Below are positions 2,002 through 42,133 of a stretch of 64,000 nt of DNA, in pieces; the stretch's first letter is position 1, and the number at the start of each line of letters is the position of its first letter. Source of the DNA: Phycisphaerae bacterium. GTDB taxonomy: Bacteria > Planctomycetota > Phycisphaerae > SM23-33. The position numbers and the translations under genes were made by a program. The stretch lies in NCBI GenBank assembly GCA_039683615.1, contig JBDKRA010000045.1:133704-197703 (forward strand), in the 5' to 3' direction. The notes below the pieces were generated by a model that was not told the DNA's origin, searched no databases, and was given only the letters and a program-made list of their open reading frames with translations.

Positions 2002-2007
2002 ATTTGT

Positions 2008-2189
2008 GGCATGGGCGTCCCCAAGGGACAGGTCTCGCCCATGCTCCCCGAACCGGAGTCAGAGATCAGGGACACGCACAACGGAGTTGTGCGTGGCACC
2101 CATCTCGACTATCCATCCCTTACCCTGGAAATCCAAAAGCATGGCCGAGACGGCCATGCCACCTAAGAGCACGGGCGAGACGCCCGTGC
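2008..2189. repeat. cluster of four short palindromic REP-like hairpins (CATGGSCG-N-CGSCCATG family)
   Basis: 2008-2044 ggcatgggcg...cgcccatgc; 2072-2095 cacgcacaac-ggag-gttgtgcgtg; 2139-2159 gcatggccgagacggccatgc; 2169-2189 gcacgggcgagacgcccgtgc. Confidence 0.75.
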
Positions 2190-5094: not shown

Positions 5095-6774
5095 TTGACG
5101 CACCCTATGCAATCGCCTATCATTGCGGCACAAATAAGGAGTCGGGATGGCCAGCCTCAGGAGGAACCCAAGCTTGGAATCGGCCTGCCTGCCGCTGCCG
5201 CGGAGCGCGCAGCCATGACAGAACCGTCCCTGGCCCAGAGCCGGCCGAACATCCTGATGATATTGGCCGACGACCTGTCCTATCGCGACCTGGGGTGCTT
5301 CGGCCAGCGGCAGTTCGACACGCCGGTCCTCGACGGGCTTTGCAGGCGAGGGCTGAAGTTCACGCAGGCCTACAGCGGCTCGCCCGAGTGCGCCCCCGCC
5401 CGGGCCAGCCTCATGACCGGCATGCACATGGGCCACTGCCGCGTCCGCACCAACGCGTCCGCCCGCGGGCAGGACCACCTTGAGAGGGCCGATGTGACGA
5501 TCGCCCAGACACTCAAGGCCGCCGGATATGCCACGTGCATGGTCGGCAAGTGGGGCATCGGCCTGCCGGGCACGGACGGGGCGCCGGAGAAGAAAGGTTT
5601 CGACGTCGCGTATGGGTTCTACGACCAGGCCAGCGCCCACACCTACTACCCGCATTACCTCTACGAGAACGGCCGGCCGGCGCCGATCCGCGGCAACTAC
5701 GGCTTCGACATGGACCATGCCTATCGCCACAACGGCGACGGGGAAGACAAGATACTCAACGCGTACGATGCCGCGGGCAAGCTGATCCCGCGCGGCGTCG
5801 CCAACGCGACCGCGGCACAGAATTCCGAGGACCTCTGCTATCAGCGGGCGATGGCGTTTCTGGACGCCACGGCCCGAGGCCAGGCGCCCTTCTTCCTCTA
5901 CTACGCCACTCAGATTCCGCACGGTCCGCTGATCACGCCGGACCTGGGGCGTTACCGGGACAAGCCCTGGCCGCAGAAGAACCGCGAGTGGGCGGCGATG
6001 ATCGACCACCTCGACCGCCACGTCGGCGGGCTGCTGGACACGCTCGCCGCGCAGGGGCGGCTGGACAACACGCTGGTGATCTTCGCCAGCGACAACGGCT
6101 ATTCGCATTGGGGCTACATGGGCCGACCGCGCTACGACGACGACCCGCTCTTTCACAACAAAGGCCCGTGGAAGGGCGGCAAGTTCATCTCCTGGGAAGG
6201 CGGCGTGCGCGTGCCGATGTTCATCACCTGGCCGGGGCGCGTCGCCCCCGGCACGACGGAGAACCTCACCGCACTGTACGATCTGCCGGCGACGCTGGCG
6301 GAACTGGCCGGCATACAGGAACCGCCCGCCACCGATGGCATCAGCATCGTGCCGCTGCTGCAAGGGCGACCCGACCGGCAGAAGGCGCACGAGTTTCTGT
6401 ACTGGGAAAGCGGCACGCACGCCCCGCACGCCCAGGCTGTCCGCATGGGCCGCTGGTTTGCCTGGCGCGAGCACCCGGACAACCCCGTGCTGCTTTGGGA
6501 CACGATCGACGATGTAGCGTCGCAGCGCGACGTGGCTGCGGCGCATCCGGACCTGGTGAATAAGGCCCTGGAGATCTTCCGCAGCCAGCACGTCGACAGC
6601 CGGTGGTACCTCAACCCCGGCCAGTCGGCCGCGACGTTCGAGGCCAAGAAGGCCCTCGCCAAGGCCGAAGGCACTATGCAGATCGACACGCGCGCCAACA
6701 GCGACTATCGCGGCGACGCCAACGCCCCGGCCTGGCCCAAGCCCCCGCGAGTGGACGGGGCGGTTCCCCCCTGA
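5095..6774 (+). CDS. Cys-type sulfatase (arylsulfatase family)
   Basis: NILMILADDL, sulfatase signature CAPARASLMTGMHMGH (C-x-P-x-R), and GKWGIG. No obvious signal peptide. Alternative start 5215 (MTEPS). Confidence 0.75.
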   Translation: MTHPMQSPIIAAQIRSRDGQPQEEPKLGIGLPAAAAERAAMTEPSLAQSRPNILMILADDLSYRDLGCFGQRQFDTPVLDGLCRRGLKFTQAYSGSPECAPARASLMTGMHMGHCRVRTNASARGQDHLERADVTIAQTLKAAGYATCMVGKWGIGLPGTDGAPEKKGFDVAYGFYDQASAHTYYPHYLYENGRPAPIRGNYGFDMDHAYRHNGDGEDKILNAYDAAGKLIPRGVANATAAQNSEDLCYQRAMAFLDATARGQAPFFLYYATQIPHGPLITPDLGRYRDKPWPQKNREWAAMIDHLDRHVGGLLDTLAAQGRLDNTLVIFASDNGYSHWGYMGRPRYDDDPLFHNKGPWKGGKFISWEGGVRVPMFITWPGRVAPGTTENLTALYDLPATLAELAGIQEPPATDGISIVPLLQGRPDRQKAHEFLYWESGTHAPHAQAVRMGRWFAWREHPDNPVLLWDTIDDVASQRDVAAAHPDLVNKALEIFRSQHVDSRWYLNPGQSAATFEAKKALAKAEGTMQIDTRANSDYRGDANAPAWPKPPRVDGAVPP

Positions 6775-8863: not shown

Positions 8864-9865
8864 ATGGCTGACAATGACGGAATCGCCGGCGGCTACCAGT
8901 TGCCTTTCGAGAGGCCCATTCTCCGTCTGCACAAGCAGATCGAAGAGCTCGAGGCCGCCCAGGCCAAGTCCGGCCGCGATTACGTTTCCGAGATCCACCA
9001 GATCCGCGCCCAGCGCACGGGGCTGCTGCGCAAGACTTACGAAGCCTTGACGGCGTGGGAAACGGTGCAGGTGGCCCGCCACCCCGCCCGCCCGCTGGCC
9101 AAAGACTACATCGCCCAGATCGTCAAGAACTTCGTCGAGCTTCATGGCGACCGCCGCTTCGCTGACGACAAGGCCATCATCGCGGGCATCGGCTCGATCG
9201 GCACGGAGAAGGCCGTCATCATCGCCCAGCAAAAGGGCCGCGACACCAAGGAAAAGGTCGCCTGCAACTTCGGTTGTGCGCATCCGGAGGGCTTCCGCAA
9301 GGCCCTTCGCGTGATGCAACTGGCCCAGAAGTTCCACCTGCCGGTGGTGACGATGGTCGACACGCAGGGCGCCTATCCGGGCGTGGGCTCGGAGGAGCGC
9401 GGGGTGGCCGAGGCCATCGCCCGCAACCTGCTGGAGATGAGCCGCCTGGCCACGCCCATCGTTTGCGTGGTCATCGGCGAGGGCGGCAGCGGCGGCGCCC
9501 TTGGCGTGGCCGTCGGCGACCGCATCGCCATGCTCCGCTTCGCCTATTATTCCGTCATCTCGCCCGAGGGCTGCGCGAGCATCCTGTGGCGCACCGGCGA
9601 AAAGGCCCCCGAGGCCGCCGAGGCCCTCAAGCTCACCGCCCCCCAGCTCAAAGAGCTCGACGTGATCGACGACATCATCCCCGAGCCCCTGGGGGCCGCC
9701 CATCGCGACCCCGTCGAGGCGGCCGGTCACCTGGAGCGATACCTCGTCAAGAGCCTGCGCGAGCTCAAGCGGCTGACGCCCCAGACGCTCCTGGCCCAGC
9801 GCTACGCCCGCTGGCGCCGCATGGGCAAGGTGATGTACCTGACGCCGCAGTCAAGTCAGTTGTGA
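8864..9865 (+). CDS. accA: acetyl-CoA carboxylase carboxyltransferase subunit alpha
   Basis: 333 aa. LDFEKPI-like N-terminus, IAGIGSIG, VTMVDTQGAYPGVGSEERG and VVIGEGGSGGALG are diagnostic AccA motifs. Confidence 0.85.
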   Translation: MADNDGIAGGYQLPFERPILRLHKQIEELEAAQAKSGRDYVSEIHQIRAQRTGLLRKTYEALTAWETVQVARHPARPLAKDYIAQIVKNFVELHGDRRFADDKAIIAGIGSIGTEKAVIIAQQKGRDTKEKVACNFGCAHPEGFRKALRVMQLAQKFHLPVVTMVDTQGAYPGVGSEERGVAEAIARNLLEMSRLATPIVCVVIGEGGSGGALGVAVGDRIAMLRFAYYSVISPEGCASILWRTGEKAPEAAEALKLTAPQLKELDVIDDIIPEPLGAAHRDPVEAAGHLERYLVKSLRELKRLTPQTLLAQRYARWRRMGKVMYLTPQSSQL

Positions 9866-13000: not shown

Positions 13001-15473
13001 ACGTGGAGTTGTACGTTCCAACGTAATAGTCGGCGTTGCCGTTGTAGGACCGCAGCGTCCCGCCGTCGAGGCGCAGTTCCACAGCGTTGCGCCAATCGCT
13101 CAGGTCGGCTTCGGCCACGCCGCCGTCGTCAACGATCACCTTGCCGGTTGCCCAGCCTTCGCCCAGGCGGAAGAGGCCCTGGGTGAGCAGGATTGTGCCG
13201 CCGGAGAGAGCGTTGGCGTGGTTCATGCGCAGGTTGCCGTTGGCGGCCAGTTGAATCGTGCCGCTATACGTGGAACCGGCGACGTTGTTCTGAAGGTTCA
13301 CCCAGCCCGGGCCGTTAACGGTCAGTCCGCCGGCGCCCTGAAGTTGTGCGCCGATAGTCAAGGCTCCACTGGCATTAGGGGCCGTGATGGACGAGGCGCT
13401 GTCCACGTACAGCTTGGAGTTGGTGTTGTAGTGCCCAGCGTAGTAGGTTGCCGCGCCGTTGTACGCTCGCAGCGTGCCGCCATCGAGCCGCAGTTGCGCT
13501 GCCTGCCGCCAATCGGTCAGGTCGGCCTCCACTATCCCGCCCGCGGCGGCGACCACCTTGCCGTTGGCGAAACCTTCGCCCAACTGGAACAGACCGCTGC
13601 CGGTTCCGAGAGAAATCGTGCCGCCGGAGAGGCCGTTGGCATTTTCCATCCGCAGCTTGCTGCTGCCATCGACGCTGATCGTGCCGGTATAGGTCGTGCT
13701 CAGGGCGTTGTAGCCCAGCATGACGCCGGCGCCGCTGGTGGCACTGGTGATGTTCAGATCGGCCGAGCCGTTGAACTGCGAACGAATGTACAGCCAGTTG
13801 CCGCTGGTTACAGCCGCACTGGTGCCAATCGTCGAGGCGCTATCCACGTAGATCTTGCTGTTGGTCGAGTTGTTGCCGACGCGGGCATTGTTCGTGACGC
13901 CCCGCAGGGTGCCGCCTTTGAGGTACAGGGCATAAGCCGGAGCGCCGTCGCCGGTATTGTCCGCTTCGGCCACGCCGCCGGTGTTGACCTCGACCTTGCC
14001 GTTGAGGAAGCCCGACCCCAACTGGAACTGCCCGCTGGTGCCGTCCAGGCTGATCGTCCCGCCCGCCAGACCGTACTGATTGTTCATGCGCAGATGGCCA
14101 TCGGGCGCTACCGTGATGATTCCGCCGGCGTACGTGCTGGCGGCCAAACCATAGTTGAGCCCGACCCAGCCCGGACCGGTGACGTTCAGCCCGCCGCTGC
14201 CGTTGAGCTGCGCGGAGATGTACATGTACTGCCCGGCGACCTTACCCTGAAGCGTTGAGGCATTGTCGACATAGATCTTGCTGTTGGCCGTGCCGTCGCC
14301 GATGCTCCAATTGTTGTACCCGCGAACGGTTCCGCCCTGGAGGTGAAGATTGTAGACCGGCGCGTTGTTGTTGTCATTTTCGAGGATGCCGTTGGTCTTG
14401 ATGTTGACCGTGCCGCTGGTGAAGCCGTCGCCGACGTACATCAGGCCGGTGGCGTTCTCGACATTGATCGTGCCGCCCGAGAGCCCCAGGCGGTTGGCCA
14501 TCCTCAACGTGCCCCCCTCGGCGATAGTGATAATCCCGCTGTACGTGTTGCCCGCGAGGTTATTGTTGAGCCCCACCAGCCCAGGACCTACTACATTCAG
14601 GTTGCCAGCGCCGTTGAGCTGGGCATAGATGTACATGTACTGATTGGCCACCGAGCCCTTGAGGGTGGAATCATTGTCGACATAGATCTTGCTGGTGGAA
14701 CCGCCGTCGCCGATGTTCCAATTGTTGTAGCCCTGCAGCGTGCCGCCCTGCAGGCGAAGCGTGGACGTGCGGCCGGCGTTATTGGTATTGGTCGCCACCC
14801 CGCCAGTCAGGACCTTGACCGTACCGGAGTTGAAACTCGACAGGTCCAACTCATCGGCATCCACTTCCAACGACCCGCTGCCCAGAAACGTAGTGCTGTT
14901 CTCCAGGCGCACGCGCCCGCCGTTGATCGTCATCGTGCCTGCCCACGTGCCTCCGGTCTGCGCTCCATTAAGGATGAGCAGCCCGGAACCCGTCTTTTGC
15001 AGATTGCCGCTGCCGCCGACGCCGGCATTGACCTTGGTGTTCAACCGAAGCGTGCCACTGGCGTTGGCCACATGCAGGTACGATGTCGTCACGCCTTCGC
15101 CCGCGTCGGCGTCGTTGACCGAGATCTGCCCGGCGGTGTTGTAGATCTGCGTCTCGTCGGTCCGCACGTTCGCCAGTGTGCCGCCATTGAGGATCAGGTT
15201 TTGCGCGGCCACCCAGTTGTCATTGACGTTCAACTGGCCTTCGAGCGTCAGCGCGCCGTTAAAGTACGACCCGCCGCCATCGGTGACGGCCGTGAACCCG
15301 CTGCCGATGAGGAACGTGTCGCTGGCCCAGACGGGCGTGGGCGATTCGGGATCCCAGTTGCCAACGGTCCGCCAGTTCTGGTTGGCCCCGCCGGCATCCC
15401 ATGTGTAGCTGGTAGCCTGAGCGGACGCCACGGCCAGCGCAAGCAAGGTAAATGATAGGGCGACGTGTTTCAT
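10035..15473 (-). CDS. giant PEP-CTERM-anchored surface protein with about 7 tandem PATR-like (autotransporter-associated beta-strand) repeats
   Basis: Signal peptide MKHVALSFTLLALAVASAQA with GAGGAG 7 nt upstream of the ATG at 15473. C-terminus VPEPATMALLSIGGLLILARRRGRR is a PEP-CTERM sorting signal. Roughly 150-aa units (LRLxGGTLxxYNxxxxGDxxxNSKIYVDxxSTL...NTYSGTI...GGTLRM) repeat about 7 times. Confidence 0.7.
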   Translation of the reverse strand: MKHVALSFTLLALAVASAQATSYTWDAGGANQNWRTVGNWDPESPTPVWASDTFLIGSGFTAVTDGGGSYFNGALTLEGQLNVNDNWVAAQNLILNGGTLANVRTDETQIYNTAGQISVNDADAGEGVTTSYLHVANASGTLRLNTKVNAGVGGSGNLQKTGSGLLILNGAQTGGTWAGTMTINGGRVRLENSTTFLGSGSLEVDADELDLSSFNSGTVKVLTGGVATNTNNAGRTSTLRLQGGTLQGYNNWNIGDGGSTSKIYVDNDSTLKGSVANQYMYIYAQLNGAGNLNVVGPGLVGLNNNLAGNTYSGIITIAEGGTLRMANRLGLSGGTINVENATGLMYVGDGFTSGTVNIKTNGILENDNNNAPVYNLHLQGGTVRGYNNWSIGDGTANSKIYVDNASTLQGKVAGQYMYISAQLNGSGGLNVTGPGWVGLNYGLAASTYAGGIITVAPDGHLRMNNQYGLAGGTISLDGTSGQFQLGSGFLNGKVEVNTGGVAEADNTGDGAPAYALYLKGGTLRGVTNNARVGNNSTNSKIYVDSASTIGTSAAVTSGNWLYIRSQFNGSADLNITSATSGAGVMLGYNALSTTYTGTISVDGSSKLRMENANGLSGGTISLGTGSGLFQLGEGFANGKVVAAAGGIVEADLTDWRQAAQLRLDGGTLRAYNGAATYYAGHYNTNSKLYVDSASSITAPNASGALTIGAQLQGAGGLTVNGPGWVNLQNNVAGSTYSGTIQLAANGNLRMNHANALSGGTILLTQGLFRLGEGWATGKVIVDDGGVAEADLSDWRNAVELRLDGGTLRSYNGNADYYVGTYNSTSKLYVDSTSTLQGSYAGRYLHIGSQLNGSGDLNVTGPGWVQLNNTVAGTTYSGTIGIAAGGSLRIGQNAGLSGGTIEVDNPTGLLRLGEGFATGRVLVQTGGVAEADHGSDRIAKELRLQGGTLRSLDGAADYRVGDNSANSMIYVDNASTIQATRSGYSFWLSSKITGSETITKTGAGQLYFNGISNNAATFTGDWDIQQGYLTLSNPSGGTWKGENLGSGATVNIAGGAYLRFTDNNSNNRWELTKNLAGTGTVQLTETSDRIIITRNAANTFGGISPGNSAGTLTFNWTVAPNTNAQLDFAKNASGDRAVWYVEAVDATSYDKVVSNGYLGAIANAKLVVDPTKPIAEAMTIYQGIASQNLSTLAFGEVSWMYDTTGTVNYNTDGTITLTNILPVLWSTASGSWNVTGNWDRLLPTSNTMAGVWNGGVSEVNTAQDVLCLTVQNADSRVNIVSAGSLNAGRSVEVRSGGTMSIDGAMTTPLFNSVGTTNLNAGATGSIATLNVSGGTTTIKTGSGFGYTNVNVIGGSSAGGNLAVDDATVDVTAMVVGTTDQTAATATITDSTVTAGSVAVRRSNSALAPSLLTVASGGELVLADTAAYIADVGSYDTGRYVLSAGGKIHFTSEIDLATFHAQTEWNGGVLVVDGTLTNYHNRNLAAGQIVDFGSTGDLASGSANRLYLRGGEIRFGDGYVRDTRLQMTEDLGTIVVSGGALSSMPGTISASVTLQGALATWNTGNATLGSGTVLALVDGAKATVGVGKFLNVDQVAFGGTGGTVELAGGYLIHGAAELAMGAGALITGNGQVLVGSAGIDLGSTGDEGSLLGTGAGLVVYGDIRGNGSVVNTTVYGNVSVGHSPGVMTMDDTTLSGSSILAMELGGTDQSLYDQVVLPGLLTVQSGATLDVSWYDGFEGSLGDTFTLFSLAGGSISGTFDVILPTFSDPGLNWNTSALYSSGTISVVPEPATMALLSIGGLLILARRRGRREHE

Positions 15474-24928: not shown

Positions 24929-25171
24929 ATGCAGTTCTGGTCTGCGATAAAGAAATTGGTTATGGCCAAACGGCCAAACAAGTGCCCCAATTGTGATTCG
25001 ACGCGGGTGGCACGCATTTTGTATGGGCTTCCGATCTTCGGTAAGAAGCTTAAACGTGATCTCGAAGCCGGAAAGGCTGTCCTTGGTGGATGCTGTATCA
25101 CCGGCGATGATCCTGAATGGCAATGCACAGCCTGCGGGCACAAGTGGGGACATTTCAGGCTTACTTGGTGA
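24929..25171 (+). CDS. 80-aa Cys-rich zinc-ribbon-like small protein, atypical low-GC codon usage
   Basis: GGAG 8 nt upstream of the ATG. MQFWSAIKKLVMAKRPNKCPNCDS...GGCCITGDDPEWQCTACGHKW gives CxxC...CxxC plus a CC pair. A/T-rich third positions contrast with neighbouring genes. Confidence 0.45.
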   Translation: MQFWSAIKKLVMAKRPNKCPNCDSTRVARILYGLPIFGKKLKRDLEAGKAVLGGCCITGDDPEWQCTACGHKWGHFRLTW

Positions 25172-26642
25172 GGACTTCCAGTAGCGTCAGGTCGGGTTCT
25201 TTGTCCGGATTCCCCAAAGCGCCGAAGGCATTTCGCACAATGCGGCGCTGGGCGTCGAACCAGTCGGCGTACTCGGTGCAGGGAGCAAAGGTGTCGCCGC
25301 GCTGGGCGAGCAGGCGCTGGAGCTGCGATTCCAGGTCGCGCCGCAGGTCCCTGGCGGCAGGAGCGTCAGCGAGGTTATTCATCTCAAGCGGGTCGGCCTG
25401 AAGATCGTACAGCACCGCGCGGCCATCGAGCCACCGGGCGTAGGAGTGGCGCCGCGTGCGCACGCCGCGCCATTCGTTGCCGCTGGTGAGGTACCCCGGC
25501 CAACCGGCGATGTAGTTCATCGTCAGCAGCGCCTCTTGCCGCGCCGCGCCCGGCCGCGCGAGCCACGTATCGGAAAGATCCATGCCCTCGACCGTGCGCG
25601 GGACCTTCACGCCGCACAGGCCGCAGAGGGTCGGGAAGAAATCCACCGGCGCTGTCAGGGCATCGCACTGCGCCGCGGCCGCGATGCGCCCGGGCCAGCG
25701 GGCGATCAACGGCACGTGAATGCTCTCTTGCCACGGGAGCATCTTCTCCCACGCGGCCTGTGCGGGGTTTCGCTCGGGCGGGGGGAGCTTGCTGAACCAA
25801 GGCTCATCGGCGTGGGCGCCCATCATGGTGCCGTGGTCGCTGGTGAAGACCACGATGGTGTTCTCCGCCAGGCCGCTGCGGTCGAGGTCGGCCATCAGGC
25901 GACCCATCATGTCATCCAGCGCCAAGGTCATCGCCAGGTAATGGCGGTATTGGGGGATCAACGCTTCAGTCGCGCCGGCTGAGACGTTGGCCGGCAGGGC
26001 CAGATGCCTGGGCAGGCGGGCGTAATACTCGTCGGGCGCGAACTTGCCGTACGTCCAGTGCGGCTGATGCGGCGAGACGAACAGGCAGAACGGTCTGCCC
26101 TGAGCGCAGTCGAAGGAGCGGTCTTCGGCACTGATGAACTGCTCGGCGTAGCCCGCCAGGCCGTCGGTCTCGTAGCCTTTCCACGGCTCGACGTGCCAGT
26201 CCTTCAGGTGCACGAAGCCGTCGAAGTATTCCATGTGGCAGTTGTACGCCCGCCAGTAATCAAAGCCGAGCCGGTCACGCCCCTCGGGCACGTAGTCGGG
26301 CCCGTGGCCGCTGAAGAATCCATCGTTGTGCAGGTGCCATTTGCCCACCCATCCGGTGCGGTATCCCGCGTGGGCGAAGGCGTCGGCGATGCTGATCTCG
26401 TCGTGCCGCGTGCGGACGTGGTTGAGCAGGTGCCCGGTCGTCTGCGGATGACGGCCGGTGACGAGCATCGAGCGGTACGGCGTGCAGACGGGGTAGGTCG
26501 AAATCGTGTTGGAGAAGGTCGTGCCTTGCGCGGCCAGCCGGTCCAGATGAGGCGTGGCGATCTGGTTGTTGCCGTACAGCGGCAGCGAGGCCGCGCGGAG
26601 CTGGTCGGCCAGCACGAACAGGATGTTCGGTCGTTGGGGCAT
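25161..26642 (-). CDS. Cys-type sulfatase
   Basis: MPQRPNILFVLADQLR, sulfatase signature CTPYRSMLVTGRHP, GKWHLH. ATG at 26642; the track ORF is over-extended to 26969. No signal peptide. Confidence 0.75.
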   Translation of the reverse strand: MPQRPNILFVLADQLRAASLPLYGNNQIATPHLDRLAAQGTTFSNTISTYPVCTPYRSMLVTGRHPQTTGHLLNHVRTRHDEISIADAFAHAGYRTGWVGKWHLHNDGFFSGHGPDYVPEGRDRLGFDYWRAYNCHMEYFDGFVHLKDWHVEPWKGYETDGLAGYAEQFISAEDRSFDCAQGRPFCLFVSPHQPHWTYGKFAPDEYYARLPRHLALPANVSAGATEALIPQYRHYLAMTLALDDMMGRLMADLDRSGLAENTIVVFTSDHGTMMGAHADEPWFSKLPPPERNPAQAAWEKMLPWQESIHVPLIARWPGRIAAAAQCDALTAPVDFFPTLCGLCGVKVPRTVEGMDLSDTWLARPGAARQEALLTMNYIAGWPGYLTSGNEWRGVRTRRHSYARWLDGRAVLYDLQADPLEMNNLADAPAARDLRRDLESQLQRLLAQRGDTFAPCTEYADWFDAQRRIVRNAFGALGNPDKEPDLTLLEVLTK

Positions 26643-26986: not shown

Positions 26987-29338
26987 ATGGCCAGGCACAG
27001 CATCGATCTTTGCGGCGTATGGCGATTTCAGCCGGATGTCTATGGCCAGGGACGGTCGGGCAACTGGTTCGCCGAGGATTTCGACCGGCGGTTCTGGCTC
27101 GAGGCCGCGGTGCCCATCACGTTCGACCGCTGCCACGTGGATCTGCCCAACTACGAAGGCCGTGGGTGGTTCGCGACACGCTTCGACGTTCCGGCCGACT
27201 GGCGCGGTCGGCGCGTCACGCTGCGGTTCGAGGGCATCTGCGCCCGCGCGAGCGTGTGGGTCAACGGCAAGGCCGCTGGCGACATTCCTGACAGCTACCT
27301 GCCCTTCGACCTGAGCGTGGGCGAACTCGTCGAGTACGGCAAGAGCAACATGCTGGTCGTCGAGGTCGACAATCGCCGGCGTAAAGACGAAGTGCCCGGC
27401 GAATGCTACGGTTGGCGGCCGGTCGGGGGCATCCTGCGCGAGGTGGTGCTGACGAGCAGCGATCCGCTGCGGATCGAGCAGGTTGCCACGACAGCTGCGG
27501 CGGATGGGGCGTTTACCGCGACGATCGAAGTGGCCAACGCCCGCGCATCGGGCGAGAGAGTTTCGTGCGAAGTCCTCGTCATCGCGCCCGATGGCAAAGA
27601 CGTGTTGCGAAGGACTTCCGCCGTCGCCGCCATCGCTGCCGGAGGCGGGGCGACACTTGAAGTGAAGGGAACTGTTTCGGCAGCGGCGTTGTGGTCGCCG
27701 CAGTCGCCGGAGCTATACAGCGTGCAGGTGCGACTGCTCAGCGGCGCCGAGTGCGTCGACGAGCGCGCGGTGCGAGTCGGGTTCCGGACGATCGCGACGC
27801 AAGGGACGAAACTAACGCTAAACGGCAAGCCGATCTTCCTGACCGGCTATAACCGCCACGAGGATTCGCCCCGCACCGACATGTGCCCCGACCGCGAAAC
27901 CACGCGACGCGACCTGGAGATGATGAAGTCGGCGGGCTGTAATTTCATCCGCCTGTGCCATTACCCGCACCACCCCTTCGAGCTGGACCTCTGCGACGAG
28001 ATGGGCCTGCTGGCGATGGGCGAGATCCCGCTGTACTGGGCGGGGACGACCAGCGAAGAGCCCGCCTCGGAGGCTATCGCGGCGGCGGCCGGGCGGCAAC
28101 TGGATCGCATGATCCGCCGCGACCGCAACCACCCCAGCGTGATCTTCTGGTCGGTCAGCAACGAGACGATGGAGGGCAAGCCTGCCGTCGTCGAGCTCAA
28201 CCGCAAGCTGATCGACCAGGCCAAGGGGGCGGACCCGACGCGCCTGGCCGTGCACGTGTCCAACTGCTGGAACGGCGGGGGCGACTTCGCCAACGACGAT
28301 GTCTGCTGCCTCAACGGCTATCCTACCTGGGGCGCCGTCGGCTGGGGCGGGCAGACCGTCCCCGACCACGCCGGCGCGACGGCGCGATTCGCCAAAGACC
28401 TCGAGACATTCCATCAGCGATATCCTGGCAAGCCGCTTTTGATCAGCGAGTTCGGCGGCACGTCGCTGGGCGGCGTGACCGGAGGGTTCCTGGGCGAGGA
28501 CGTTCACGCGGCTGTCATCACCTCTGAGCTTGCGGGCATCCGTCAGTGTGCCCATGCCTGCGGCGCGACGATCTGGTGCTGGGCCGATCACACATGGCCG
28601 GGCAACACCTGGATGGCCAACATGCACATCAGCCCCTTCGGCGCAGTGACGCGCACCCGCCGCGCCAAGGCTGCGTTCTATGCGGCGCAGAAGGCGTTTG
28701 TGGCGATTCAAAGCCAAGAGCATGGGCGGGACGCCCATGCCACGACAACGGCCCAGCCCCAAGCGGCGCCGGAGGAACCGGTGGCCGGGTGGGGCGTGAT
28801 GATGGTGCGCCTGCACATGAACGACATTCCGCAGGCGATCTTGCCCGAAGGGTACACGCTGCGCGGGATGCGCAGCGGCGATCAGGCGCTCTGGGTGGAT
28901 ATCTGGCGCGATGCCGAACCGTTCTTCCCCATTGGCGAGGACCTCTTCGAGGCGCAGTTCGGACTCGACACCGCCCTCTGGAATCGCCGATGTCTGCTGG
29001 TCTTCGATCCGCGCGGGCTGGCCGTAGCCACCACCAGCGCCTGGTGCAACCGCAACTTCCTGGGCCAAGACTACGGGCAGATCCATTGGGTCGCCACGCG
29101 ACGCGCGTATCAAGGCAAGGGCCTGGCCAAGGCCATGATGACCGAAGCGTGCAATCGCCTGGCCCAGTGGCACACCAAGGCGTTTCTCGCCACGCAGACC
29201 AAGCGAGTCGGCGCCATCCGCCTGTACCTCGACTACGGCTTCGTGCCGCTGATCCAGTCCGCCGACGACGAGCGCGCCTGGAACGCCGTGCGCCAGAACC
29301 TGGCGCACGCCGGACTGGATCGCGCGTATCGAGTGTAG
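26987..29338 (+). CDS. glycoside hydrolase family 2 protein fused to a C-terminal GNAT N-acetyltransferase domain
   Basis: AGGAG 7 nt upstream. GH2 N-terminal sugar-binding region, TIM-barrel motifs NGKPIFLTGYNRHED, WSVSNE (acid/base) and ISEFGG (nucleophile). After a linker, YQGKGLAKAMMTEACNRL (GNAT motif A) and RLYLDYGFVP (motif B). Single uninterrupted ORF. Confidence 0.7.
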   Translation: MARHSIDLCGVWRFQPDVYGQGRSGNWFAEDFDRRFWLEAAVPITFDRCHVDLPNYEGRGWFATRFDVPADWRGRRVTLRFEGICARASVWVNGKAAGDIPDSYLPFDLSVGELVEYGKSNMLVVEVDNRRRKDEVPGECYGWRPVGGILREVVLTSSDPLRIEQVATTAAADGAFTATIEVANARASGERVSCEVLVIAPDGKDVLRRTSAVAAIAAGGGATLEVKGTVSAAALWSPQSPELYSVQVRLLSGAECVDERAVRVGFRTIATQGTKLTLNGKPIFLTGYNRHEDSPRTDMCPDRETTRRDLEMMKSAGCNFIRLCHYPHHPFELDLCDEMGLLAMGEIPLYWAGTTSEEPASEAIAAAAGRQLDRMIRRDRNHPSVIFWSVSNETMEGKPAVVELNRKLIDQAKGADPTRLAVHVSNCWNGGGDFANDDVCCLNGYPTWGAVGWGGQTVPDHAGATARFAKDLETFHQRYPGKPLLISEFGGTSLGGVTGGFLGEDVHAAVITSELAGIRQCAHACGATIWCWADHTWPGNTWMANMHISPFGAVTRTRRAKAAFYAAQKAFVAIQSQEHGRDAHATTTAQPQAAPEEPVAGWGVMMVRLHMNDIPQAILPEGYTLRGMRSGDQALWVDIWRDAEPFFPIGEDLFEAQFGLDTALWNRRCLLVFDPRGLAVATTSAWCNRNFLGQDYGQIHWVATRRAYQGKGLAKAMMTEACNRLAQWHTKAFLATQTKRVGAIRLYLDYGFVPLIQSADDERAWNAVRQNLAHAGLDRAYRV

Positions 29339-29411
29339 CTTCCAGTGGCAGAGGCTTTTCAGCCTGTGATTCACGGCCTGGAAAGGCCGTGCGCCCAGTA
29401 ATCCGGATACT

Positions 29412-30824
29412 CTAGGGCAACATGCCGTTGTATGGCCGCCCGGCCACGAGGTTCCCGTCCTGGACAAACCCCTCGGGGCGGCTGCTGAGCGTCTCGATCA
29501 TCCGAGTGCGCCACTGCGCCAGGGCCGGCGATCGGTCACTCGAAAGATCGTGCAGTTCCCGCGGATCGGTCTGCAGATCGAACAGTTGTTCGCTGCCGTC
29601 TTGTGGACGCCAGATGTACTTACAGCGCCCGTCGGTGAGCATGTGAAATGCCTGTCGGGCGCTGTAACAGGGGGCGTGCTCGCCGTGCAGCACGTCGCGC
29701 ACGCGGGCGTTCGGCCGGCCCCGGAGCACGCCGACGAGGCTGCGCCCGTCGATGCCGACCGGGCAGTCGAGGCCTGCCAGCTCCAGCACCGTGGGCATGA
29801 GGTCTTCCAGGCAGACCGGCTGGTCGCACACCGCCCCGCGCGCCAGGGACAGCTTGCTCGATCCGCAGATCAGCATCGGGACGGCGGCGGAGCCCTCGTA
29901 GGGCTCGCACTTGCGGAACATGTGGTGGTCGCCGAGCAACTCGCCGTGGTCGGAGGTAAAGATGATGACCCAAGGCCGCGCCGCGGCGTGGCTCTTGCCC
30001 ATGAAGTCCTGCATGAGCCAGTAGATCTGGTCGTCGATGTGGTTGATCAGGCCGAAGTACCCCGCCTGGGCGCTGCGCAGCGCCTCGCCGGCGAGGTTGA
30101 CGTAGTGCGAGTCGATGCCCGCGCCCAGGCCGTCGTTGGGCGGCGGGCTGGCCCAGTCGCCGATGGCCGCCGGCGGCAGCGGCATGCGCAGATAGCGTTC
30201 CATGTAGAACGCCGGCGGGATCAGCGGCGGATGCGGCGCGTAGAACGAGCTGGTCAGAAAGAGCGGGCTGTCGCCATCATAGGCGGCCAGATAGTCGCGC
30301 GTCTTGCGGGCAACCCACGTGGTCGGGTGCAGGCGCTCGTCGAGATGGAACGGCCGCGCGGTCCAGCCGTTGTAGCTCATACCGGCCGCCGCCAGGCCGC
30401 CGGCGCCGGGGGCGCCTTGCTCGATGGCGATGGCAAGGTCGTCGTCATCTACATAAGACGAGCCGTGCGTGCGGGACTGGTAGCCGTAGTCCTTCTCGCT
30501 CGGGTGCTGGTGCATGTTGCGCCCGATGAGGGCGGTGCGGTATCCCGCATCGGCCAGCAGTTGCGGCAGCACCGGTCCGGTGGTCTCGTTGCCGCCGACA
30601 AAACCAACCATCCCATGCGTCGCAGGAAACTTGCCCGTCAGCAGACTTCGCCGCGCGGGGATGCACGAGGGGCAGGTCGAGTACGCGCGGCGAAAGAACG
30701 TGCCCTGCCCGCCGATCCAGTCGATGTTAGGCGTCAGCACGGCCGGGTGCCTCGCCAGCGAAAGACAATCCGCCCGCATCTGGTCGGGCATGATCAGCAG
30801 GATGTTCGGACGTGTGTCGCTCAT
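29412..30824 (-). CDS. Cys-type sulfatase
   Basis: MSDTRPNILLIMPDQMRAD, signature CIPARRSLLTGKFP, FTSDHGE. ATG at 30824; the track N-terminus up to 30911 translates a repeat element. Confidence 0.75.
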   Translation of the reverse strand: MSDTRPNILLIMPDQMRADCLSLARHPAVLTPNIDWIGGQGTFFRRAYSTCPSCIPARRSLLTGKFPATHGMVGFVGGNETTGPVLPQLLADAGYRTALIGRNMHQHPSEKDYGYQSRTHGSSYVDDDDLAIAIEQGAPGAGGLAAAGMSYNGWTARPFHLDERLHPTTWVARKTRDYLAAYDGDSPLFLTSSFYAPHPPLIPPAFYMERYLRMPLPPAAIGDWASPPPNDGLGAGIDSHYVNLAGEALRSAQAGYFGLINHIDDQIYWLMQDFMGKSHAAARPWVIIFTSDHGELLGDHHMFRKCEPYEGSAAVPMLICGSSKLSLARGAVCDQPVCLEDLMPTVLELAGLDCPVGIDGRSLVGVLRGRPNARVRDVLHGEHAPCYSARQAFHMLTDGRCKYIWRPQDGSEQLFDLQTDPRELHDLSSDRSPALAQWRTRMIETLSSRPEGFVQDGNLVAGRPYNGMLP

Positions 30825-31004: not shown

Positions 31005-32261
31005 CTACTGGCGGATGTGGCCTTGGCCGGTCACGATCCATTTGTAGGTCGTCAGGTCTTCGGCGCCCATGGGGCCGCGGGCGTGGAGTTTGTCGGTGCT
31101 GATGCCCACCTCGGCGCCCAGGCCGTACTCGCCGCCGTCGCTGAATCGCGTCGAGGCGTTGACCATCACGCTGGCCGAATCGACCAGCGCGGTGAAGGTC
31201 TCCGCGGCCGCGATGTCGGCCGTGACGATCGCGTCGGTGTGCGCGCTGCCGTAGGTGTTGATGTGGTCGATGGCCTCGGCCAGGCCGTTGACGATCTTCA
31301 CGGCCAGGATCAGGTCGAGGTATTCCGCCCGCCAGTCGTCTTGGGTGGCGGGCTTCATGCCCGGCACGAGCTTGCGGCTGCGGTCGCACCCACGCAGTTC
31401 GACGCCTTGGGCGATTAAGAGTTCGGCCATGCGCGGCAGGAATTTCGGGGCGACGGCCGCGTCTACCAGCAGCGTTTCCACAGCATTGCACACGCCGGGG
31501 CGCTGGCACTTGGCGTTGAGGACGATCTTTTCGGCGGCGGCCTCGTCGGCGGCCGAGTGCACGTACACGTGGCAGTTGCCGGTGAAGTGCTTGATGACGG
31601 GGATGGTGGCGGCCTCGACGACGGCGCGGATGAGTCTCTCGCCGCCGCGGGGGATGATCAGGTCGATCAGGCCCTGCGCTTTGGCCATCGCGGTGACAAT
31701 CTCGTGGTCGGCCTTGTCGATCATGGCGATAGCGGCAGGGGGCAGGCCCGCGGAGGCCAGGCCCTCGCGCATGGCCGCGGCGATGGCGAGGTTGGAGTGC
31801 ATCGCCTCCTTGCCGCCGCGCAGGATGCAGGCGTTGCCGCTCTTGAGGCACAGGGCCGCGGCGTCGGCGGTGACATTGGGGCGCGACTCGAAAATGATGC
31901 CGATGACCCCGATGGGCACGCGGCGCTTCTCGACGCGCAGGCCGTTGGGCCGATTGTACGCCTCGATGGTCTTGCCGACGGGGTCGCTCTGGCGGGCGAT
32001 CTGCTCGATGGCCGCAGCCATCGCTTCGACGCGAGCGTCGGTCAGCCTCAAGCGGTCGACCATGGCGTCGGACAACGCCAGTTCATCCTTGCGGGCGATG
32101 TCGCGGGCATTGGCATCAAGCAGCGTCGCACGAGCGGCGCGAAGGGCGGCGGCGCAGGCCATCAGGGCCTGGTCGCGCTGGCTGCCTTTGGCGGCGGCGA
32201 GTGCGGCGGCGGCCTTGCGGGCCTGTCTGCCCAGGTCCTGGATGTACTGGGTTGCGTTCAT
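31005..32261 (-). CDS. proA: glutamate-5-semialdehyde dehydrogenase (gamma-glutamyl phosphate reductase)
   Basis: 418 aa, full-length ProA-like. Catalytic Cys context FTGNCHVYVH and an ALDH fold. Confidence 0.85.
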   Translation of the reverse strand: MNATQYIQDLGRQARKAAAALAAAKGSQRDQALMACAAALRAARATLLDANARDIARKDELALSDAMVDRLRLTDARVEAMAAAIEQIARQSDPVGKTIEAYNRPNGLRVEKRRVPIGVIGIIFESRPNVTADAAALCLKSGNACILRGGKEAMHSNLAIAAAMREGLASAGLPPAAIAMIDKADHEIVTAMAKAQGLIDLIIPRGGERLIRAVVEAATIPVIKHFTGNCHVYVHSAADEAAAEKIVLNAKCQRPGVCNAVETLLVDAAVAPKFLPRMAELLIAQGVELRGCDRSRKLVPGMKPATQDDWRAEYLDLILAVKIVNGLAEAIDHINTYGSAHTDAIVTADIAAAETFTALVDSASVMVNASTRFSDGGEYGLGAEVGISTDKLHARGPMGAEDLTTYKWIVTGQGHIRQ

Positions 32262-32276
32262 GGTTGCCGTTTTGTG

Positions 32277-32355
32277 GCATGGCCGTCTCGGCCATGCGTT
32301 CCACGGGCGTCTCGCCCGTGGTTCAGGTCAGGGAGCATGGGCGAGACGCCCATGC
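32277..32355. repeat. three tandem REP-like palindromes of the same family, immediately upstream of proA
   Basis: ggcatggccgtctcggccatgc, cacgggcgtctcgcccgtg, gcatgggcgagacgcccatgc. Confidence 0.75.
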
Positions 32356-32370
32356 CACGATTATCTCGCG

Positions 32371-33441
32371 TCAGGGTTGTTCGGTTGGCTCTTCGGTCCG
32401 CTGGCGCATCTTGAACTGCACTTTAGGAGCTGGTCCGACGACGTTCAACTGCAGATCGCCCAGGAATCGGATCCGCACGTCTTCGGTTTCCCAGCTCTTG
32501 ATGTCCTTTTTGTGCCGGTCATCGAGCACCACGTAGGCCTCGATCATCGATTCTGACACTTTGGCAATGTCGGTCTTGGAGCCGGTGACCTTGATCTTGG
32601 GTCTCCATTCGATGGGGTCTTTGCGGACGAGGGCGAATTTTTCCCACGTGCCGTCCTCGGCCCAAGTGACCGGGCAGAGCAGGGCGACGCTGACGGAGAG
32701 TTCCTTGGCGTCGGTGTATTGTCCGATGGTGGCTTTGACCTTAACCGAGGCGCCGGCGTCGCTGAGGGTCACCGGCTCGTCGGCGATCTGCGATTCGATC
32801 TTGACGTCCAGGTTAAGGGGCTGGCCCGGCATGTATGAGCGCAGATCCTGAGGCAAGGTCTTGATCGTGGGCTTGGTGTTGGTCTTGCTGAGGATTCGCT
32901 CCCACGTCGACCGCGTGCAGCGCACCGTCACGCGATTGGGCTCGATGGCGGCCTTGCCGTCCAGCTCGCGCCCGGAGGCCACGAATTCGACGGGCACCTC
33001 GTGGCTGGCCAGCGTTTCGATCGTAACCGGGATGGTATCGGGCGAAACCCACTGCACGGACAGGCCCATCTCGGCGAATTGCGGCACCTGCTGCACGATC
33101 GGCAGCGCTGGGATGCTGGTCGTGCCCGCGGGCGCCTTCGAGACGTCGAACCGCGTCAGGTCGTCGGTGCTGAACCGCTCGCGATAGATCTCGATATTGC
33201 GGCGACTGCCCATGATCTTGAAGGTGACTTTCTGCCGCGTGGGGGAGGTGATGGTGAGGTCGGGGTCGCTCGAGTACAGCACGATGACGGCCGTGAACTC
33301 GTGGCTTTCCGTGTGCTGCAGGTCGGCATAGATCCACACCAGCACCGACACCAGGAGGACCCAAAGCGCGTTGCGTCCGCGGTCGAACCACCAGTGCCGC
33401 GACAGGGCGCGCGACTCGTTGCCGCTCACTCGCCTGCTCAT
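32371..33441 (-). CDS. cdaR: YbbR-domain protein CdaR (regulator of diadenylate cyclase)
   Basis: N-terminal TM, then repeated YbbR-like beta domains. Sits immediately downstream of cdaA with a 4-nt overlap. Confidence 0.6.
   Translation of the reverse strand: MSRRVSGNESRALSRHWWFDRGRNALWVLLVSVLVWIYADLQHTESHEFTAVIVLYSSDPDLTITSPTRQKVTFKIMGSRRNIEIYRERFSTDDLTRFDVSKAPAGTTSIPALPIVQQVPQFAEMGLSVQWVSPDTIPVTIETLASHEVPVEFVASGRELDGKAAIEPNRVTVRCTRSTWERILSKTNTKPTIKTLPQDLRSYMPGQPLNLDVKIESQIADEPVTLSDAGASVKVKATIGQYTDAKELSVSVALLCPVTWAEDGTWEKFALVRKDPIEWRPKIKVTGSKTDIAKVSESMIEAYVVLDDRHKKDIKSWETEDVRIRFLGDLQLNVVGPAPKVQFKMRQRTEEPTEQP

Positions 33442-42060: not shown

Positions 42061-42133
<73 letters not shown>

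Follow-up and report, generated by a model that had tools for sequence, protein, structure and literature searches.

An in-frame REP element in the interdomain linker of a GH2–GNAT gene, a probable late insertion into an old two-domain enzyme

We analyzed a 64,000-nucleotide stretch of contig JBDKRA010000045.1 from a Phycisphaerae bacterium (hereafter the window; coordinates are positions within it), and in particular a plus-strand gene whose product joins a glycoside hydrolase family 2 (GH2) region to a GNAT acetyltransferase region. A perfect palindrome in the linker between the two regions is a genuine repetitive extragenic palindromic (REP) element. We consider it highly probable that the gene encodes an old GH2–GNAT two-domain enzyme, and that the REP later landed in frame in its linker DNA and was tolerated. 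The open frame runs from 26933 (TTG) or 26987 (ATG) to 29338, giving 783 aa when counted from the ATG, the start that agrees with the public gene call and with orthologue N-termini. The protein is identical to a public protein (P0001) from the metagenome-assembled genome (MAG) ‘Planctomycetaceae bacterium’ GCA_021371965.1. The features of the gene are as follows:

26987–29338, + strand: GH2–GNAT coding sequence, 783 aa plus stop
26987–28723, + strand: GH2 region, aa 1–579 (sugar-binding, Ig-like and TIM-barrel domains; catalytic E393 and E488), from Pfam, PDB sequence search and structure/fold search
28724–28795, + strand: interdomain linker, approximately aa 580–603, differing in length and sequence between family members and including the sole segment of the structure model with a predicted local distance difference test score (pLDDT) below 50
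28796–29335, + strand: GNAT region, aa 604–783, with an N-terminal extension of ~90 aa and motif A at Q709–A714, from Pfam, alignment and model
28720–28743, − strand: REP element of family 1, GTAG-19-like, with a GTGG tag, 9-bp stem and 3-nt loop; the + strand reads GCATGGGCGGGACGCCCATGCCAC, aa 578–586, (E)HGRDAHAT

Both halves of the protein are complete by Pfam. The three GH2 domains (Glyco_hydro_2_N, aa 39–156; Glyco_hydro_2, aa 164–267; and the Glyco_hydro_2_C TIM barrel, aa 272–495, E = 5e-35) and the GNAT domain (Acetyltransf_1, aa 665–752, E = 1.5e-10) all score above their own gathering cut-offs. The NE acid/base motif is N392–E393 and the EFG nucleophile motif is E488–F489–G490; of these residues, E393, E488 and G490 do not vary in either of two homologue alignments (18 and 63 sequences), and N392 and F489 hardly vary in the larger one. 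E393 and E488 line up with the catalytic glutamates of the solved GH2 enzyme 6ed2. GNAT motif A reads Q709-G-K-G712-L-A714 (Q/R-x-x-G-x-G/A type), with G712 invariant. Many other residues are invariant in each half across the two alignments. An AlphaFold model of the full-length protein, built from the 63-sequence alignment, is confident (mean pLDDT 91.6; predicted template modelling score (pTM) 0.85), and a model of the GNAT region by itself (pLDDT 95.5) matches known GNAT structures.

The palindrome at 28720–28740 reads GCATGGGCG-gga-CGCCCATGC, with 9-bp arms that are 100% complementary around a 3-nt loop, and is translated as EHGRDAHAT (E578–T586, nt 28718–28744). Together with a 3′ CCAC, which is a 5′ GTGG on the opposite strand, the element totals 24 nt. 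Its RNA hairpin has a computed stability of −16.7 kcal/mol (z = −3.6 relative to shuffled sequences). A pattern search of the 64-kb window with the consensus GTGGCAYGGSCGTCYCGSCCRTGC, allowing up to three mismatches, returned six matches against 0.00 expected from 100 shuffles, and a seventh copy carries the GTGG tag and the usual stems around an 18-nt loop, tccccaagggacaggtct, in place of the 3-nt loop. These copies are arranged as follows:

2006–2192, intergenic: family-1 REP group, with the loop variant at 2006–2044 (+) and a tandem pair of consensus matches at 2139–2162 (−) and 2169–2192 (−), 30 nt apart
28720–28743 (−): the consensus match in the GH2–GNAT linker
32274–32358, intergenic: cluster of three family-1 REPs (+,+,−), matching the consensus at 32274–32297 (+), 32298–32321 (+) and 32335–32358 (−), between an Aldedh gene (31005–32261, −) and a hypothetical gene (32371–33441, −)

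Thus six of the seven copies are intergenic and the linker copy is the sole coding one in the window. The GTGG tag abuts the stem in five of the six consensus matches, the degenerate copy at 32298 having GTTC instead. The copy at 32335–32359 differs from the linker copy by one loop base, and the whole 32274–32358 cluster can fold as a single long hairpin (−62.9 kcal/mol). The loop variant precedes the start codon of an alcohol-dehydrogenase-like gene (991–2001, −) by 5 nt. When the whole window was searched against Rfam at gathering thresholds, the palindrome matched no family; the sole match in the window was a tRNA (42061–42133, +; 73.6 bits).

The same 24-mer is widespread outside this window. 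Scanning one genome per species with the exact degenerate pattern, of which the CCAC tag forms part, recovered it in at least 113 stretches of other genomes. Among the matches listed, most lie in Planctomycetota MAGs (Phycisphaerae, Tepidisphaerales, Humisphaera and Planctomycetaceae). Their flanks are unrelated, so that conservation is limited to the hairpin and tag, and head-out inverted doublets are common. The identical 24-nt REP GCAYGGSCGAGACGSCCRTGCCAC (L004–L116) also occurs in genomes labelled Verrucomicrobiota, Acidobacteriota, Armatimonadota, Myxococcota, Sumerlaeota, Hydrogenedentota and Spirochaetia; some of these cross-phylum matches are on contigs of 0.3–5.9 Mb, with phyla given as the recorded bin labels. 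Two related loci associate the element with a REP-associated tyrosine transposase (RAYT). In an Armatimonadia locus (L039), a RAYT homologue at 6145–6597 sits between REPs at 6012–6035 (−) and 6640–6663 (+), and in a Planctomycetota locus (L089), a segment flanked by REP-encoded peptides scores 94.7 bits against NCBIfam NF047646, REP_Tyr_transpos (cut-off 80). The family thus combines a GC-rich stem-loop, a GT[A/G]G-type tag, multiple and mainly extragenic copies, inverted dimers and clusters, and a RAYT association that is seen in L039 and L089 and not in the window.

GTAG-tagged REPs have been described in the Planctomycetes–Verrucomicrobia–Chlamydiae (PVC) superphylum, with Opitutus terrae carrying the most intragenic copies (Di Nocera, De Gregorio & Rocco 2013, BMC Genomics 14:522, PMC3733652). 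Additional file 3 of that study lists the peptides encoded by O. terrae GTAG-19 elements as HGRDARAT, GTGVSPV/GTGVPPV, TGGTPVP, WHGRLAR and VARASRP, and decay of the tag to GTGG was reported for one O. terrae family (PMC3733652). When we computed the six frames of the window 24-mer, we found that the GTAG-19 peptides are its translations, which strongly indicates that the window REP belongs to the GTAG-19 family or is very close to it, a match made through encoded peptides and not through a published DNA consensus. As in GTAG-19 of O. terrae, the window element is a short tagged palindrome with a GTAG superfamily tag, found as single copies and dimers in the PVC superphylum, and GTAG-19 elements likewise lie in frame in many O. 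terrae genes, including a GH2 and a GH20. Unlike there, the host is a Planctomycetaceae MAG, the insertion site is a GH2–GNAT interdomain linker, and the ORF carries the CATGGGCG (T) variant, which encodes HGRDAHAT and not HGRDARAT. 

The element also shares with REP/REPIN-RAYT systems (Nunvar et al. 2010, PMC2817692; Bertels & Rainey 2011, PMC3116915) a 20–40-nt GC-rich palindrome, a 5′ GT[A/G]G-type tag, inverted doublets and REPs flanking RAYT genes (L039, L089). REPIN-RAYT systems are described as mostly vertically inherited and lineage-specific; by contrast, the identical 24-mer is found here in MAGs labelled as several phyla, and a notable share of its copies is intragenic. The features of the gene and of its palindrome agree with an original prediction, made from the sequence of the window, which had called the palindrome REP-type, assigned it to an intergenic family with further copies in the window, read its translation as EHGRDAHAT, and placed it in a single 783-aa ORF with complete GH2 and GNAT domains and NE, EFG and QGKGLA motifs.

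The age of the fusion can be set against that of the REP by comparing homologues. We searched 5.8 billion proteins and used the best 120 listed matches after clustering at 90%. Every one of these is a full-length GH2–GNAT fusion of 760–810 aa with both Pfam domain sets, at 98–100% query coverage and 43–76% identity, and their source labels include Planctomycetota, Anaerolineae, Armatimonadota and Brocadiaceae. The REP-derived peptide is present in only two of them, the window protein (P0001) and its closest relative (P0002; 76–78% identical). Between F571 and M606, 32 of 63 aligned sequences have a linker of 25 residues, compared with 34 in the window protein and 46 in P0002. Because all 120 homologues are fused, 118 of them lack the REP peptide, and the REP is confined to two close relatives, the fusion is old and predates the REP by far, and the REP is a later, lineage-specific in-frame insertion.

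The gene for P0002 lies in a separately assembled MAG (L001, GCA_021372275.1; the sister genome), and its linker DNA holds two canonical copies of the element, GCATGGGCGAGACGCCCATGCCAC, spaced 30 nt apart and encoding EHGRDAHATQEHGRDAHAT. The pair matches the window REP in site, orientation and reading frame, and its 30-nt spacing recurs in the intergenic tandem of the window at 2139/2169. Overall nucleotide identity is 79%. Within the REP, the sole difference is a synonymous loop change from CGA to CGG, and the stem is perfectly kept.

The GNAT half has its own history. It has many stand-alone homologues of 175–205 aa (33–49% identity; source names generic), and M606 (28802–28804), invariant in 63 homologues of the fusion, aligns with Met1 of the stand-alone proteins P0252, P0270, P0296, P0319 and P0334. 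M606 is probably a relic of an ancestral GNAT start codon. Because stand-alone GNAT homologues exist and several start exactly at M606, the GH2–GNAT family probably arose long ago by fusion with a separate GNAT gene, an event unconnected to the REP. At the locus of one stand-alone homologue (P0255, L121), we found no GH2 gene adjoining it.

How the insertion could be accommodated is suggested by its sequence and its position. None of the six frames of the 24-mer contains a stop codon, and since the unit added is also a multiple of three (~27–30 nt), the REP is simply translated as EHGRDAHAT. In the AlphaFold model, the REP peptide (aa 578–586) spans the end of the last GH2 helix (562–579) into the disordered linker, where aa 584–592 form the only segment with pLDDT below 50; the model thus indicates that the insertion is tolerated in a disordered linker. 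Across the fetched copies of the element, 31% lie in long stop-free stretches, compared with 60% of random positions, a statistic that can also fall on shadow frames, as it does with the copy in the window, and is used here only to contrast coding with non-coding DNA. The element is therefore depleted from coding DNA, and not excluded from it. For frame usage, we relied only on Pfam-validated ORFs, which include the following genes with in-frame REPs:

L004:1184–3538: DnaE, a doublet in the finger domain, with Pfam matches on both sides
L010:2–2488: alanyl-tRNA synthetase, with Pfam matches on both sides
L041:327–3419 and L091:2837–5782: PurL, at a site shared by the two genomes and with three copies in L091, with Pfam matches on both sides
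L043:4999–7308: Lnt, two copies, with Pfam matches on both sides
L057:11–2899, − strand: CstA, four copies, with Pfam matches on both sides
L044:5128–7347, − strand: REP directly after a GH20 catalytic domain, with Pfam matches on both sides
L089: valyl-tRNA synthetase (ValRS), with Pfam matches on both sides

Several of these REP-bearing host genes in other MAGs are normally essential. Rickettsia palindromic elements (RPEs) are longer, at roughly 100–150 bp, than the RAYT-associated unit of 24–30 nt in the window, and are not known to have a dedicated transposase. The window REP resembles RPEs, which according to PMC3733652 also sit in frame within protein-coding genes, in being a selfish palindrome translated within apparently functional, even essential, proteins.

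Together, these observations fit a history in which an ancestral GH2 exo-glycosidase with a β-glucuronidase-like fold was already fused, through a short flexible linker, to a GNAT domain. A REP, a small non-autonomous palindrome mobilized by RAYT, would then have inserted into the linker DNA in the lineage of the window MAG and the sister genome. It would have lengthened a disordered linker in which the extra residues were tolerated, and the copy number would subsequently have shifted by one 30-nt unit between the genomes (one versus two). Under this account the insertion would have been selectively near-neutral, and a single ancestral insertion would have been followed by duplication or loss. 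Several points weigh against it. The copy number and frame of the REP are known from assembled sequence alone. A tblastn search with the L089 RAYT as query found no RAYT in the window, and among the loci and the window only L089 and L039 matched. Finally, the REP DNA is 23/24 identical between the two genomes, a level that 12% of the 8-codon windows in the gene reach, and this identity does not tell apart one old insertion common to both, separate recent insertions and homogenization.

The original prediction had put forward, as the simplest history, a merger of adjacent GH2 and GNAT genes through read-through across an intergenic REP; taken as a recent event with loss of the stop codon, this would make the REP a fusion scar. 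Such a merger would suit both the mainly intergenic distribution of the REP family and the existence of many stand-alone GNATs with a Met1 at the position of M606, yet as a recent event we regard it as refuted, given that the fusion extends through all of the best homologues, down to 43% identity and into several phyla by label, that a 25-residue linker is the norm, and that the REP is limited to two close relatives differing in copy number. Fused orthologues without the palindrome had been named in advance as evidence for an ancient bifunctional protein, and 118 homologues are of this kind. An assembly artefact was raised as well: the palindrome would be the mark of a frameshift, of a repeat collapsed during assembly or of a chimeric join, and the true locus would be two genes. 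It is true that the source is a MAG, that repeats can mislead assemblers and that the locus is known from assembly alone. However, on each side of the element the order and reading frame agree with those of more than 100 orthologues that were assembled independently, the second MAG carries an in-frame element at the matching place, and the element is only 24 nt long, with the linker growing by whole codons, so that this explanation is if anything even less credible than a merger. What has held up is the third option, a genuine two-domain enzyme, which is favored by the invariant residues in both halves and by the confident two-domain model.

Two further alternatives accept an old fusion and concern the REP itself. 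The element might have been co-opted, tuning the length or charge of the linker in units of 9–10 residues, or acting through a hairpin that pauses ribosomes or supports separate expression of the GNAT from M605/M606. The perfectly kept stem with its single synonymous change, the difference in copy number between the sister genomes, the invariance of M606 and the stability of the hairpin relative to shuffles would all be expected in that case. Against this, 118 homologues function without a REP, the element crops up in proteins that have nothing in common and between genes, as expected of a selfish insertion filtered by tolerance, and its conservation is not exceptional within the gene. The sense strand of the in-ORF hairpin also has no T-run, and the two terminator-like calls, both antisense, do not exceed the number in shuffles (1.6 ± 1.4); we regard co-option as improbable. 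Somewhat more plausible, though still unlikely, are two independent REP insertions into the linker, one in each sister genome. REPs are mobile, the linker is among the few tolerant sites, the copies are nearly identical against an overall nucleotide identity of 79%, and the sister genome carries REPs in the GH2–GNAT gene and its neighbors that are absent from the window. On the other side, position, orientation and frame agree in both genomes, and the 30-nt tandem spacing, being found also at 2139/2169, suggests local duplication of a unit. We prefer a single insertion into an existing fusion.

For annotation, the locus is best treated as one real gene, and the palindrome is no reason to split the ORF. 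For genome evolution, it shows cleanly, from two genomes, how a selfish REP persists within a gene, by way of a disordered linker, six open frames, whole codons and copy-number change, and extends the intragenic-REP phenomenon of O. terrae and Rickettsia to Planctomycetaceae. In-frame insertion of such a REP type (O. terrae), RPEs and a glycosidase–GNAT fusion (RmNag) are already known, and our findings overturn nothing in current understanding. For enzymology, they define a conserved GH2–GNAT family, with at least 120 members at 90% clustering and several phyla by label, that has no characterized member.

The GH2 half is nearest to microbial β-glucuronidases and β-galacturonidases, both by PDB sequence search (E ~1e-48) and by Foldseek (template modelling score (TM) 0.83–0.89, target-normalized). 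It resembles GH2 β-glucuronidases (GUS), such as E. coli GUS (3k46) and gut-microbial enzymes (6ed2, 6u7j and 6ncy), in its three-domain fold and in keeping both catalytic glutamates. Unlike them, it carries a C-terminal GNAT, lacks the N-x-K motif and falls under the NCBIfam cut-off. Its best NCBIfam match is β-glucuronidase NF007538 at 220.8 bits, below the cut-off of 544. In the alignment with 6ed2, the template ‘GNKKG’, which in GUS carries the N-x-K carboxylate-recognition motif, lies opposite ‘HISPFG’, a segment whose S, P and G vary little or not at all among family members. Given HISPFG in place of GNKKG and the NF007538 score, we regard the GH2 half as GUS-like in fold and not as a canonical glucuronidase.

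The nearest structural neighbors of the GNAT half include MAB_4324, the mycothiol synthase MshD, GNA1 and a glucosamine N-acetyltransferase from C. acetobutylicum, with the RmNag GNAT region (4zm6) at rank 32. The top neighbors are 5kf1 (a Clostridium acetobutylicum glucosamine/glucosaminide N-acetyltransferase) and MshD (1ozp, 2c27), at E = 1e-8 to 3e-8 and TMq 0.62–0.66. Each transfers acetyl to the amino group of a glucosamine moiety; unlike the window GNAT, to which they are 16–20% identical, both are tandem-GNAT proteins. A PDB sequence search with the GNAT half gave one marginal match (1wwz, 2e-3). An amino sugar as the acceptor would fit these structural similarities, which we take as a hint. 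The architecture has a counterpart in RmNag, a fungal GH3 β-N-acetylglucosaminidase fused to a glucosamine N-acetyltransferase GNAT region (Qin et al. 2015, PMC4680927; PDB 4zm6), which likewise has an N-terminal glycoside hydrolase and a C-terminal GNAT. The window protein differs in having GH2 and not GH3; RmNag has a tandem GNAT, is eukaryotic and has no demonstrated sequence relationship to the window protein.

We tentatively propose that the GH2 half removes a β-linked sugar other than a canonical glucuronide, and that the GNAT half serves as N-acetyltransferase for an amino sugar from the same glycan or product, as a form of glycan salvage; in the window lineage, the enzyme would then act within sulfated-glycan breakdown. 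This logic of cleaving and re-acetylating would be analogous to that of GlmA and NagZ in peptidoglycan recycling, and to the acetyl-CoA:glucosaminide N-acetyltransferase step in lysosomal heparan-sulfate breakdown. The functional proposal has to be set against four observations: neither half reaches the cut-off of any NCBIfam equivalog, GNAT fold similarity is not specific, the stand-alone GNAT homologue P0255 has no GH2 gene as a neighbor, and four distant orthologue loci (L117–L120) share no operon, only assorted carbohydrate-active genes. A wider idea, that GH2–GNAT proteins form a widespread bifunctional ‘cleave and re-acetylate’ family and that RAYT-driven gain and loss of REPs also actively remodels its linker, we consider doubtful; if linkers were remodeled in this way, REPs would be a source of linker-length variation in proteins. 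In two of the distant loci, a 365-aa protein with no Pfam match (L118:10491–11588 and L120:10372–11469) is encoded directly downstream of the GH2–GNAT gene on the same strand, and may be a partner.

The gene is flanked on both sides by sulfatase genes, and a degenerate member of a second REP family lies between it and the downstream one:

25161–26642, − strand: upstream divergent sulfatase (Sulfatase and SGSH_C), from Pfam
29345–29395: degenerate inverted doublet of the second REP family (GTGG-CACRGSCT-ttcc-AGSCYGTG), within the 73 nt that separate the GH2–GNAT stop from the convergent sulfatase
29412–30824, − strand: downstream convergent sulfatase (Sulfatase and SGSH_C), from Pfam

The upstream SGSH_C sulfatase is found in both the window and the sister genome, and the window also has the second, downstream one; flanking sulfatase genes are peculiar to the window lineage. 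The second REP family (GTGG-CACAGSCT-ttcc-AGSCTGTG) occurs in the sister genome at L001:10758–10808, 8983–9007, 14513–14590 and 294–318. There, too, it enters coding sequence: the Ig-like domain of the P0002 GH2 contains an in-frame inverted doublet encoding 14 aa, FPGCAAQAGKPVPR, and the upstream sulfatase contains an in-frame copy that reads PQAGKPVP where the window protein has SFDCAQGR. Three more second-family copies of the sister genome fall within a called 328-aa hypothetical gene.

Outside the window, RAYT itself appears to be embedded in host proteins. Close homologues of the L089 RAYT share one predicted protein with an S-adenosylmethionine (SAM) methyltransferase, DUF1156, Ham1/ITPase, ThiE or PF20143 (P0124–P0126, P0129, P0131, P0138, P0181, P0194 and P0218); such proteins would represent either genuine insertions that keep the frame or read-through by the gene caller in GC-rich DNA with few stops. 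In L089 (2–2836, +; JADFNO010000039.1), the complete RAYT lies in frame inside ValRS, between the motifs ‘...SDQWYVKVTDD...RAL’ and ‘...FPARYAKT...DWCISRQLWWGHRIP’, with an SGTGI-type REP peptide upstream and PHGRDARAT downstream. We found no description of an in-frame RAYT within ValRS in the literature searched. The ValRS–RAYT insertion occupies one shared site in at least five divergent sequences (32–57% identical to L089, and including P0122, P0123, P0160 and P0170), at which ordinary ValRSs have a short loop.

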